This document shows, piece by piece, positions 52,019-64,000 of a stretch of 64,000 bases of DNA; within the stretch, counting starts at the first letter, position 1; each line of letters begins with the position of its first letter. The translations under genes and the position numbers were made by a program. This DNA comes from Escherichia coli (GTDB lineage: Bacteria > Pseudomonadota > Gammaproteobacteria > Enterobacterales > Enterobacteriaceae), in the NCBI RefSeq assembly GCF_003334815.1, contig NZ_QOWO01000015.1; one strand, written 5' to 3'. Under the pieces are notes generated by a model. The model was not told the origin of the DNA and did not search any database. It saw nothing but the letters and a program-made list of their open reading frames with translations.

Positions 52019-52039
52019 TCTCTCCATGTGTTAAATATT

Positions 52040-52073
52040 GAAACGGGCGTATAACACGCCCGTTGTTTTATTT
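52040..52073 (+). terminator. icd intrinsic terminator
   Basis: Hairpin AACGGGCG-TATAACA-CGCCCGTT followed by GTTTTATTTA. Confidence 0.65.
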
Positions 52074-52120
52074 ATGTGGATATTATTAATAGCATATCGA
52101 GCATATTTATATGAAGCCCA

Positions 52121-52444
52121 TTACTTGAGCCCATATGGGCATATTTTTATAATGCAACTATTATGTAAACATTTATTTGTTATTTTGCTTTCTCCTGGAG
52201 GACACTCTTGACTGCTTTTGAGTAAACTCCATAAATCCTTGTTGAATGGTGCGATGTGATAAATAGTAATAGGATATTCTTTATCCTTAAGGATAATACC
52301 AGACTTAACCGGTGTAAATATACTGCCAGGAGGGAGAAATATAGTAGATTGATACCAGATGATCATTTTCATATTACCCCATATGGCTGAAAAAGATATA
52401 CCACATGTAGGTTGAATTACCGTGTCAATTACTATCCACTTCAT
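52121..52444 (-). CDS. iraM: Anti-adaptor protein IraM (RpoS stabiliser under Mg2+ starvation), 107 aa
   Basis: 107-aa [15 protein letters not shown]...CPYGLK recognised as IraM (YcgW); low-GC coding sequence. Confidence 0.85.
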
Positions 52445-53143
52445 TTGTTATGTCTTATCCCACGGTATTTAATATGGTTCATTAGGATGTTTATTTCTTG
52501 ATTTTGCATATGAGTATATTACCCCCCCCTCAAAAAAATAAATTAATTAAAATGATGGCTTATATAAAATAAAATTTAAAGCAAGGAATCTCAATGGATG
52601 TTAAACAAAATGAGATTTTGTGAAAGCAATAAATTATTGACTTCGTTTTAGATTTGTTTAGCTATAATGTTATACATTCAAATGACTGAACATCCTGTAA
52701 TTAAAACATAGCCTTTATGCTACTTTGTGCCAATTTGCTAAACATTATGGTTGCCTTTTTATATAACGATAATAATGAATATAAGCATGACATGAGAATA
52801 AGGTTTCAATTTTTGAGTTATATAGGAATGATTTAACCTGTTCCTGGCTAAAATACATATAACCGGATGATGACTAAACCAAAATACATGTGCGTTAAGT
52901 ATTGAAACGGACGTGTGGCACGGCCGTTGTTTTTATAAATATGTTAACCGTTATAAAATAACGTATCAAAAGTCAAGTGATCACATTTCAAATATCAAGT
53001 TGATAGTATTAGTCTGGTGATTATTTATGGGTGACAATAAAAAGACAGTATTAATCATCCATAGAGATAGTCTCTGCACTTTTATTTCCATTATGCTAAT
53101 GCCTTACTGAATTATGAAGCATTTCTTAAGTATCCAACTTTAG

Positions 53144-53548
53144 CTAGATTAATGGTTTATTATTTTCTACATCTTCAATATATAAAAGCGTATTATCAAT
53201 GGCGTAGTAACTGCGTTTGTTATGATTAACATCAGTAACCCACCGGAAAACGCCCGCGCCTGCCAGTGTTGAACAGTATTCCCGAAATGTAGATTTTCCG
53301 CAAATATGAAGCAATGCGGCCTCTTTTATTTTAGCAGGGTTCTTGGTCGTACTAACTTTTAACAGGTTCCTGGTTCCTCTTAATAACAAAACCGTATCAT
53401 CGTGAGTAATAATTCTGATGTTATCCGTAGCCAGATAATAAATGTAATGTGCAATACGGTGATGTTTTAATTCTGAATAAAACCAGGAGAAGTTTTGCTC
53501 TTTTCTCACTTGCTCAAACATCTTTTGAAAAACAACGACCTGATCCAT
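53144..53548 (-). CDS. ycgX: DUF1398 protein YcgX, 134 aa
   Basis: 134-aa ORF in AT-rich context, upstream of bluR in the remembered K-12 order. Confidence 0.8.
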   Translation of the reverse strand: MDQVVVFQKMFEQVRKEQNFSWFYSELKHHRIAHYIYYLATDNIRIITHDDTVLLLRGTRNLLKVSTTKNPAKIKEAALLHICGKSTFREYCSTLAGAGVFRWVTDVNHNKRSYYAIDNTLLYIEDVENNKPLI

Positions 53549-62689: not shown

Positions 62690-62745
62690 TCCCGCCGTTA
62701 GCTAAAAAACCGCGTCGTATTCATCGACGCGGTACATATGAAATA

Positions 62746-63075
62746 TTATTTTTTGCCGATAGCACGCATGGTGTCATCAATTGCCGTGATCAACAGCATT
62801 TGCGGGTCTTTAGCGCAAACCTGATTCAGTTTTTCTACCACTTTGGCGCTCAGTTCCGGAGATTGCTCAATTTTTAAATCACGGCTGGCAACGCTGGCAT
62901 TACCCATTACCGCAACAATTTCTGCAACCTGTGCGCTGTCAGTTTTTGCCATTTCGTTGGCTTCTGCGCAAGTAATATAGGTTTCTGACGGCAAACCGTT
63001 TTTAATATTGTAGTCCTGCGCCCAGGTCATTGGTGCGAAAACAAACAGGCCCGCCAGTAAAGCAAATTTTTTCAT
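62746..63075 (-). CDS. ymgD: Periplasmic protein YmgD (start 63075 or 63081)
   Basis: Signal peptide MKKFALLAGLFVFAPMTWA; small secreted protein immediately downstream of ymgG. Confidence 0.8.
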   Translation of the reverse strand: MKKFALLAGLFVFAPMTWAQDYNIKNGLPSETYITCAEANEMAKTDSAQVAEIVAVMGNASVASRDLKIEQSPELSAKVVEKLNQVCAKDPQMLLITAIDDTMRAIGKK

Positions 63076-63084
63076 CATCATTCC

Positions 63085-63429
63085 TTATTTCATTTTACCC
63101 AGAATTGCACCACCCGTACCGCCAATCACGGCACCTTTAATCGCCCCTTCGAGGCCATTGCCGGTCAGAACGCCAGTGACAGCACCAACGGCGGCACCCA
63201 CTTTTGCACCTTTACGCGCATTTTTACCGTCGCGGCCTTTTTCTGTTACTGCACCAACACCAGCGCCAACAGCTGCACCTTTCAGTACGCCATTAACACC
63301 ATTGCCAGTAAGTAAACCAACGCCTGCGCCTAGCAATGCACCTTTCGTGGTGCGGTTCATATCCGCCATCGCTGGCGTGGAGCAGAACAATGCTGAGATA
63401 AGCCCGAAGGCAAGTATTTTTTTCTTCAA
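63085..63429 (-). CDS. ymgG: Glycine-zipper protein YmgG, 114 aa
   Basis: Signal peptide plus repeated G-x-G-V-G-A-V-T-G glycine-zipper segments. Confidence 0.8.
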
Positions 63430-64000
63430 CTTAGATGTCCGGTATTAAGTAAGTTGCACACACAATAATTTCGTCTTCAATTAAGATCTGCTTAACTAAA
63501 GAACGCTCGCTATTATTCAGATAATTCAAAATGAGCGTGGCTGTGATGATAGGAATTATGTTTTTTACGTGAATGAGAATAATCTTAAATGAGGAATAAC
63601 TCATTGATTGACAATATTTTTATTCAAGAAGTGTCATTGACTGTTAACGCAATGTTGTAAAGGTAAGATAATCTGATTTATCAATATTATTGTGTGATTT
63701 TTATGTGAGCAGAAGATATTCATCAGCAACGATTACATTAGTCATTTTATTTTGCCGACGGCCTCATTGTCGAAAGATAAGCGTACGACAGTATTATCAG
63801 AAAAGAGTGATTTTTTATCCAACTACACTTCAGCGCACTGCGCTGAGAGATCCCCTCATAATTTCCCCAAAGCGTAACCATGTGTGAATAAATTTTGAGC
63901 TAGTAGGGTTGCAGCCACGAGTAAGTCTTCCCTTGTTATTGTGTAGCCAGAATGCCGCAAAACTTCCATGCCTAAGCGAACTGTTGAGAGTACGTTTCGA

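Follow-up and report, generated by a model that had tools for sequence, protein, structure and literature searches.

The adenine- and thymine-rich (AT-rich) DNA that follows icd, the isocitrate dehydrogenase gene, in a 64,000-nt stretch of Escherichia coli DNA (contig NZ_QOWO01000015.1; the window, below, means this whole stretch) is a known segment of the E. coli K-12 chromosome, lying between icd and the min operon. It is very probably a mosaic of old foreign DNA of low guanine-plus-cytosine (GC) content that gathered at the 3' end of icd, a recurrent integration site of e14 and lambdoid prophages, and not one island. The part in question, positions 52019-64000, is called the block, and positions 1-52018 the upstream core. 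From 52019 to 63842 the block is 100% identical in nucleotide sequence to K-12-derived records, and its genes stand in the published order, which read from the core is icd, iraM, ymgK, ymgL, ycgX, bluR, bluF, ycgZ, ymgA, ariR, ymgC, pdeG, ymgF, ycgH (a pseudogene), ymgD, ymgG, ymgI and ymgJ. By this identity and order the block is, as the initial annotation held, a well-described K-12 cluster and no new system.

The compositional shift at icd is real: GC, third-position GC (GC3), codon indices, rare codons and dinucleotide signature all differ between block and core. GC falls from 0.512 in positions 1-52018 to 0.408 in 52019-64000; 1-kb bins give the same two means (standard deviations 0.027 and 0.046; Mann-Whitney p = 2.3e-7), and a 2-kb sliding window runs at 0.48-0.55 across 1-52000 and at 0.36-0.46 from 52001 on. 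A two-segment maximum-likelihood scan places the best change point at 51890-52000, in the last 130 nt of icd. Genes were compared as 50 core and 15 block coding sequences (CDS), with annotation transferred from RefSeq records and re-validated as intact open reading frames (ORFs) of the window. CDS GC is 0.515 in the core and 0.392 in the block (p 2e-7), and GC3 is 0.545 and 0.390 (p 2e-8), with each block gene lying below the core mean. The codon adaptation index (CAI), calculated with Sharp-Li weights entered by hand, drops from 0.355 to 0.237 (p 2e-4) and is backed by a leave-one-out index built from the window's own core genes (0.702 and 0.585, p 3e-5); rare codons rise from 3.0% to 6.3% (p 0.0012). 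The Karlin delta* distance of block from core is 58, compared with 23-41 for equal-size core chunks. Sliding GC and codon adaptation were the calculations that the initial annotation had named as able to overturn the shift; both separate block from core significantly.

Two details of the first description need adjustment. The block was called gene-sparser, which holds for its coding density (0.546 with intact CDS, 0.781 with pseudogenes, 0.906 in the core) but not for its gene number, which at 1.27 per kb exceeds the 0.99 of the core because block genes are small (median length 273 nt, against 858 nt). Similarly, of the four stretches described as AT-rich and intergenic, 55917-56229 and 59643-60041 are truly so, but in 52445-53143 lie two annotated micro-ORFs, ymgK and ymgL, and the icd terminator occurs there a second time, and 63430-64000 contains ymgI (63431-63604), ymgJ (from 63705) and an insertion sequence (IS) end, that of IS10 (from 63843). 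GC is also uneven inside the block: 0.27-0.33 at 52.0-53.25 kb, about 0.49 in bluR, and 0.46-0.52 at 61.75-63.5 kb, so that the right-hand 2 kb is close to native. In an uninterrupted K-12 record, the low-GC region reaches ymgJ and the autotransporter fragment that follows it, ending just before minE.

The features of the block, together with icd, are as follows.

50768-52018, plus strand: icd (isocitrate dehydrogenase), the last core gene, whose 3' end is the phage attachment site (annotation, match breakpoints, GC change point).
52027-52069, plus strand: icd terminator, copy 1 of a 43-nt direct repeat, left edge of the variable block (repeat; hairpin of -18.4 kcal/mol).
52121-52444, minus strand: iraM, anti-adaptor protecting RpoS from RssB, GC 0.34 (NCBIfam NF007393, 172.6 bits, cutoff 121).
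52701-52745, minus strand: ymgK, a 14-aa micro-ORF in the iraM cassette (RefSeq annotation).
52891-52933, plus strand: repeat copy 2, a degraded icd terminator and the right edge of the cassette (84% identical to copy 1).
52981-53091, minus strand: ymgL, a 36-aa ORF (annotation).
53144-53548, minus strand: ycgX (DUF1398), a paralogue of the prophage genes ybcV and ydfO (homology; PMC3509220).
53769-54500, minus strand: bluR (ycgE), MerR/MlrA-like repressor of ycgZ-ymgABC (annotation).
54705-55916, minus strand: bluF (ycgF), with a BLUF and a degenerate EAL domain, blue-light anti-repressor acting on BluR (Pfam, alignment to BlrP1).
55917-56229, no strand assigned: bluF/ycgZ divergent promoter region, GC 0.31, with a genomic-SELEX (systematic evolution of ligands by exponential enrichment) H-NS site (sequence; PMC3946193).
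56230-57437, plus strand: the ycgZ-ymgA-ariR-ymgC operon of small connector proteins feeding the Rcs phosphorelay (annotation; NCBIfam YcgZ family), with ycgZ at 56230-56466, ymgA at 56509-56781, ariR at 56810-57076 and ymgC at 57189-57437, all on the plus strand by annotation.
57769-59292, plus strand: pdeG (ycgG), predicted CSS-motif and EAL phosphodiesterase of cyclic di-GMP (c-di-GMP) (Pfam).
59424-59642, plus strand: ymgF, small cell-division-associated membrane protein (NCBIfam NF041587, 136.6 bits, cutoff 100).
60042-62689, plus strand: ycgH, autotransporter pseudogene with a frameshift and an internal stop (annotation, Pfam).
62746-63604, minus strand: ymgD, ymgG and ymgI, small envelope proteins (annotation).
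63705-63842, plus strand: ymgJ, truncated by the IS10 insertion (annotation).
63843-64000, no strand assigned: IS10/ISVsa5 end (CTGAGAGATCCCCTCATAATTTCCCC...) inserted in ymgJ; the window stops inside the element (sequence match).

K-12 annotation, sequence identity and Pfam domains bear out the gene identifications of the initial annotation. IraM, YcgZ and YmgF all exceed their own NCBIfam cut-offs; BluR scores 268 bits against the NCBIfam MlrA model, under its 417-bit cutoff, and is therefore a paralogue of MlrA. BluF carries BLUF at residues 1-91 and EAL at 172-387, and differs from the active enzyme BlrP1 at four motifs (EAL to EAI, DDFG to DHFG, KVD to KIS, AEGVE to AMGVA). BluF and PdeG are the only EAL-domain proteins identified in the block, and the degenerate EAL protein that had been listed as an item of its own does exist but is BluF itself. 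The CSS-type phosphodiesterase is, by its predicted domains, PdeG (PF12792 at residues 31-217, PF00563 at 251-486). The decayed autotransporter is ycgH, in which an autochaperone domain (AC_1) falls in the ORF 60042-61562 and an Autotransporter beta-domain in the ORF 61629-62663, with no single intact ORF. The ymgJ region (63647-63842) shares 85% identity with DNA lying upstream of another autotransporter gene of E. coli, ypjA/ehaD (locus L004, 12001-12196), and a fragment encoding an autotransporter beta-barrel comes after ymgJ in K-12; two autotransporter loci, not one, have therefore left remnants in the block. No tRNA or tmRNA was detected in 50000-64000, where an Rfam scan (E <= 0.1) gave only a chance match to a small nucleolar RNA model, far below threshold. 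In the spacer between ymgC and pdeG, positions 57532-57585 form a near-perfect 24-nt inverted repeat, 96% complementary with a 6-nt loop, which may be an operon terminator or a protein binding site.

The left edge of the block coincides with a site that is repeatedly occupied by phages. A search of 5426 complete E. coli genomes found icd joined to iraM without interruption in 3027, and in 44% the 3' end of icd is taken by e14, a lambdoid prophage or another insertion. Where the junction is broken, the match ends either inside icd, at 51854-51860, which is the attachment (att) site of e14 and other phages, or at about 52071, 53 nt past the stop codon; the matches of B2, O157 and CFT073 genomes end at the latter point. 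In an O157-like genome the integrase of a lambdoid prophage directly adjoins icd, and in a genome of the sequence type 131 (ST131) kind a sitABC/IS1 region lies there. There is no tRNA at this integration site. Integration of e14-type prophages at icd leaves the pseudogene icdC at attR. In e14-bearing K-12 the order is pinE-mcrA-icdC-iraM, with iraM outside e14 attR; the window lacks e14, and its iraM starts 102 nt past icd.

Outside E. coli, the sites downstream of icd were compared by anchoring on Icd, with one genome per species and at least 11 enterobacterial loci, a sample that leaves out E. fergusonii, Salmonella and Klebsiella. The mnmA-nudJ-rluE-icd synteny is kept as far as Pseudomonas. 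Past icd, none of the loci of E. albertii (whose contig stops after 4.6 kb), Citrobacter, Enterobacter, Superficieibacter, Yersinia, Photorhabdus or Rahnella carries a block protein. The DNA after icd varies by genus and has a lower GC than the upstream flank in most loci, C. werkmanii excepted; E. albertii has an integrase fragment there, and Superficieibacter an integrase accompanied by phage-like genes. In C. werkmanii (locus L008, 11547-12275), a MerR/MlrA-like regulator gene, its product 37% identical to BluR, adjoins icd downstream and is followed by ORFs of normal GC; its position may be a coincidence or the trace of an older arrangement.

Inside the block, the first element past icd is itself bounded by repeats. 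iraM and ymgK form an 864-bp cassette between copies of the 43-nt direct repeat, a duplication of the icd terminator whose second copy has a weaker predicted hairpin (-10.4 kcal/mol). The interior of the cassette (52072-52890) is present in 3944 of the 5426 genomes (72.7%). In an iraM-less strain a single terminator is joined straight to the right flank of copy 2, and ST131-type matches resume at about 52906. Most likely, the cassette is the scar of an old lambdoid prophage that integrated at icd, with its moron gene iraM retained.

Homologues of two block proteins are found in phages, as confirmed by tblastn searches against deposited phage genomes. Along its full length, IraM shares 65% identity with the product of a gene of phages converting to Shiga toxin 2 (Stx2) that stands between stx2B and nanS-p on the strand opposite late transcription; YcgX is about 44% identical to the products of genes that lambdoid phages carry immediately after their lysis cassette. 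In order and strand relative to each other, iraM and ycgX match the phage homologues, which flank the lysis cassette on either side, opposite late transcription. In the iraM-ycgX segment itself there are no phage structural, lysis, replication or integrase ORFs. PHROG matches of IraM, YcgX and BluR were discounted, because the predicted prophages in PHROGs may have been drawn widely enough to take in the region.

Within the species, the upstream 25 kb is at least 80% covered in 5418/5426 genomes, and the block has some match in 5425 and at least 80% coverage in 3815. In about 265 records the only match is a 196-nt paralogous stretch upstream of ypjA, and the block itself is therefore absent there, as it is in O157:H7. 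In B2-type strains about 75-78% of the block is matched, in several pieces; pdeG is truncated there (N-terminally in ST131-type strains) and ycgH further decayed. The block is missing from O157:H7-type genomes and from the place after icd in the sampled loci of other genera; being near-universal within E. coli, it is accessory only at the scale of the genus and for some of its sub-parts.

One of these sub-parts occurs elsewhere as a separate unit. The nearest relatives of BluF outside E. coli, 73-76% identical, are in the Citrobacter freundii complex, where the seven-gene unit from bluR to ymgC is intact with the gene order and sizes of E. coli (locus L089). There it forms a sharply bounded low-GC pocket, at 0.43 between flanks of 0.51 and 0.54, and these flanks are unrelated to those in E. 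coli: LysR and aldo-keto reductase genes on one side, and a fimbrial operon, gdhA and dhaKLM on the other. Identity to E. coli is 84% for BluR, 82% for YcgZ, 73% for BluF and 70% for AriR, and only 47-49% for YmgA and YmgC. No iraM, ycgX, pdeG, ymgF or ycgH lies nearby; the pocket has an extra 183-aa GerE/LuxR-type gene (7905-8456) that overlaps the ymgC homologue by one base and has no counterpart in the E. coli block. Earlier work found Salmonella, Yersinia and O157:H7 without the unit and Citrobacter, Klebsiella and Enterobacter with it, noted prophage homologues of ycgX and proposed phage-associated horizontal acquisition (Tschowri et al., 2012; PMC3509220).

Published sites of H-NS, a silencer of foreign DNA, and promoter-like sites are also more frequent in the block than in the core. 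Genomic SELEX located in vitro H-NS sites in the iraM-ycgX, bluR-bluF, bluF-ycgZ, ymgC-pdeG and ymgF-ycgH spacers, and only two in the 52-kb core, at comR-bhsA and ycfP-ndh (Shimada et al., 2014; PMC3946193). TpA steps number 73 per kb in the block and 44 in the core, A/T tracts are 1.6-fold more frequent (15.3 and 9.7 per kb), and 47 sigma-70-like promoter sites are found, compared with 33 +/- 6.4 in shuffled sequences and 12 in an equal length of core. The atypical composition, absent synteny, Citrobacter pocket, phage homologues, O157:H7 absence and in vitro SELEX sites together lend support to the proposed profile of horizontally acquired, H-NS-bound DNA.

In the block at least four layers may be distinguished, and we infer the order and mechanism of their acquisition. 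The first would be the iraM-ymgK cassette (a), and the second ymgL-ycgX, another lambdoid remnant of the moron type (b). The self-contained bluR-bluF/ycgZ-ymgA-ariR-ymgC unit, equally AT-rich at its different Citrobacter locus, would make a third (c). A fourth (d) would comprise pdeG-ymgF, the two decayed autotransporter loci (ycgH; ymgJ with the downstream fragment) and the near-native ymgD-ymgG-ymgI. More specifically, the DNA right of icd may preserve, layer upon layer, a series of phage integrations at a single attachment site, with each prophage reduced to one host-wired moron (iraM, wired into RssB/RpoS; ycgX), older layers pushed to the right, and the 43-nt repeat as the attL/attR scar of the latest completed cycle; we put the chances of this account slightly below even.

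Several observations weigh against a phage-assembled, H-NS-silenced mosaic. There is no integrase or recombinase ORF in 52019-63842, the sole mobile element being the IS10 end at 63843, and no direct or att-like repeats enclose the block as a whole, flanking repeats being present only around the iraM-ymgK cassette. No icd coding remnant of the icdC kind was detected before repeat copy 2, where the local alignment score was reached by 95/500 shuffles, and insertion of the cassette is therefore indistinguishable from a deletion between pre-existing repeats. Among the matches examined for 52019-53770, only the iraM ORF resembles phage DNA (73%), a few short matches of 95-99% having been left out. 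About 95% of E. coli genomes carry the block, at 96-97% identity in B2, and its divergence roughly follows phylogroup; any acquisition is therefore old and the recent history mainly vertical. ymgD and ymgG look native (GC 0.45 and 0.52, core-like CAI 0.49 and 0.39). The evidence for H-NS binding here is in vitro SELEX; the 10-bp high-affinity H-NS motif is not clearly enriched (1.27 per kb in the block, 1.06 in the core), and block genes are not named in the supplements of two H-NS genomics papers (PMC11335895; PMC4288151).

Acquisition of the whole 12-14 kb from icd to minE in a single event, as one genomic island that later decayed, would account for the one sharp left boundary at the icd stop codon, the low GC over most of the span and the joint loss of the entire span in O157:H7-type genomes. 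It is nevertheless unlikely: the sub-parts differ in distribution, the iraM cassette being found in 73% of genomes and the remainder of the block in about 95%, and Citrobacter carries only the bluR-ymgC unit, in other surroundings. The GC of 0.27-0.52 changes in steps that follow gene-module boundaries, and the span as a whole has neither an integrase nor flanking repeats.

Also improbable is that the block is native DNA of vertical descent, made AT-rich and poor in codon adaptation by low expression, small regulatory genes, long promoters and pseudogene decay. Its presence in nearly all E. coli, its lack of mobility genes save the recent IS10, and the native look of ymgD and ymgG would fit, as would the low codon indices of some core genes (ycfZ, ycfL, plsX, thiK). 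Against this stand a GC3 of 0.39 versus 0.545 with all block genes under the core mean, a dinucleotide signature outside the range of core chunks, and the lack of any block gene at the syntenic site in the sampled genera despite conserved upstream synteny; the bluR-ymgC unit is moreover a bounded low-GC pocket at another locus in Citrobacter, and IraM and YcgX have phage homologues. That the shift stems from an assembly join or a chimeric window has a negligible chance: the window does end inside IS10, at a ymgJ::IS10 junction whose exact form occurs in 0/5426 complete E. coli genomes, but many complete genomes, independent of one another, carry the icd-iraM junction and the 11.8-kb block without a break at 99.9-100% identity, and the IS10 join, at the far end, leaves the composition result unaffected.

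A mosaic of domesticated foreign genes at icd can be compared with several known systems. The closest is K-12 MG1655, where the segment from iraM (ycgW) to ymgJ, with its BluF/BluR-YcgZ/YmgA/AriR-Rcs pathway (Tschowri et al., 2009, 2012; PMC3509220), has the same genes, order, strands and domains; unlike MG1655-type strains, the window lacks e14 between icd and iraM and has the IS10 end in ymgJ. With e14 and other icd-integrating prophages the block shares the attachment region, and their duplication of the icd 3' end parallels the duplicated terminator around iraM, which however comprises only about 43 nt and no detectable icd coding remnant. Lambdoid morons (the iraM-like gene of Stx2-converting phages; ybcV of DLP12 and ydfO of Qin) are homologous to iraM and ycgX, but the phage context genes are gone here. 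A survey of iraM and iraL has placed K-12 iraM "on the e14 prophage" (Hryckowian et al., 2014; PMC4045071), which does not fit this window, since iraM is present in it without e14. IraL of uropathogenic CFT073 is, like IraM, an RssB anti-adaptor, 58.9% identical in amino acids according to the same paper, variably present and regarded as horizontally acquired; unlike iraM, its gene lies at another locus, the potB island (PMC4045071).

In the cell, H-NS would coat the AT-rich, promoter-dense DNA of the block and keep it quiet, with specific stress signals lifting the repression. PhoPQ and low Mg2+ induce iraM, and IraM sequesters RssB, so that RpoS is stabilised. PdeG is a CSS-type enzyme that degrades c-di-GMP. 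Stimulation of Rcs by YcgZ, YmgA and AriR turns curli down and colanic acid and acid resistance up, and sigma-S also acts at the ycgZ promoter. At that promoter BluF, under blue light and cold, removes BluR, upon which YcgZ, YmgA and AriR activate Rcs (PMC3509220); MarA activates the same promoter as well (PMC6900184).

The literature already describes the cluster, its blue-light, Rcs and RpoS functions, its acquisition, probably in association with phages, and the fact that O157:H7 lacks it. Possible small additions are the repeat-bounded iraM cassette with its genome counts, the persistence of iraM without e14, and the low-GC portability of the bluR-ymgC unit, which may help in annotating or engineering the locus or in reading RpoS differences among strains. 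The block may also serve as a worked example in which an abrupt drop in GC, at a site of phage attachment, points to a patchwork of foreign genes domesticated as small regulatory connectors.

The IS10 end in ymgJ follows a candidate 9-bp target, CGCACTGCG, at 63834-63842. As none of the 5426 genomes shows the junction, the DNA probably comes from a laboratory strain derived from K-12 and with a Tn10 history. Two IS10-type (ISVsa5) transposase genes interrupt the bluF-ycgZ spacer in strain ET12567, which gave the best match score but for this reason is not the source, and IS insertions within the block are common in other strains (IS1 near iraM; IS2, IS3, IS200C and IS1B elsewhere). H-NS-bound DNA has been proposed to capture transposons (PMC11335895), and the IS insertions within the block fit with such capture.

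Two minor observations concern the core. The ycfZ-ymfA segment (36124-37370) is a low-GC pocket (0.43) whose codon index is the lowest among the core genes; an O157-like genome (locus L005) has neither gene between cobB and potD, and the segment looks like a second, smaller variable islet. Near the start of the window, yceF (1655-2279), the gene of 7-methyl-GTP pyrophosphatase, is split by a 1-nt length difference into overlapping ORFs at 1655-1981 and 1911-2279; its best match among the 5426 genomes is 99.6% identical, 500 nt against 501 nt, and the split is either a strain-specific frameshift or a sequencing error.

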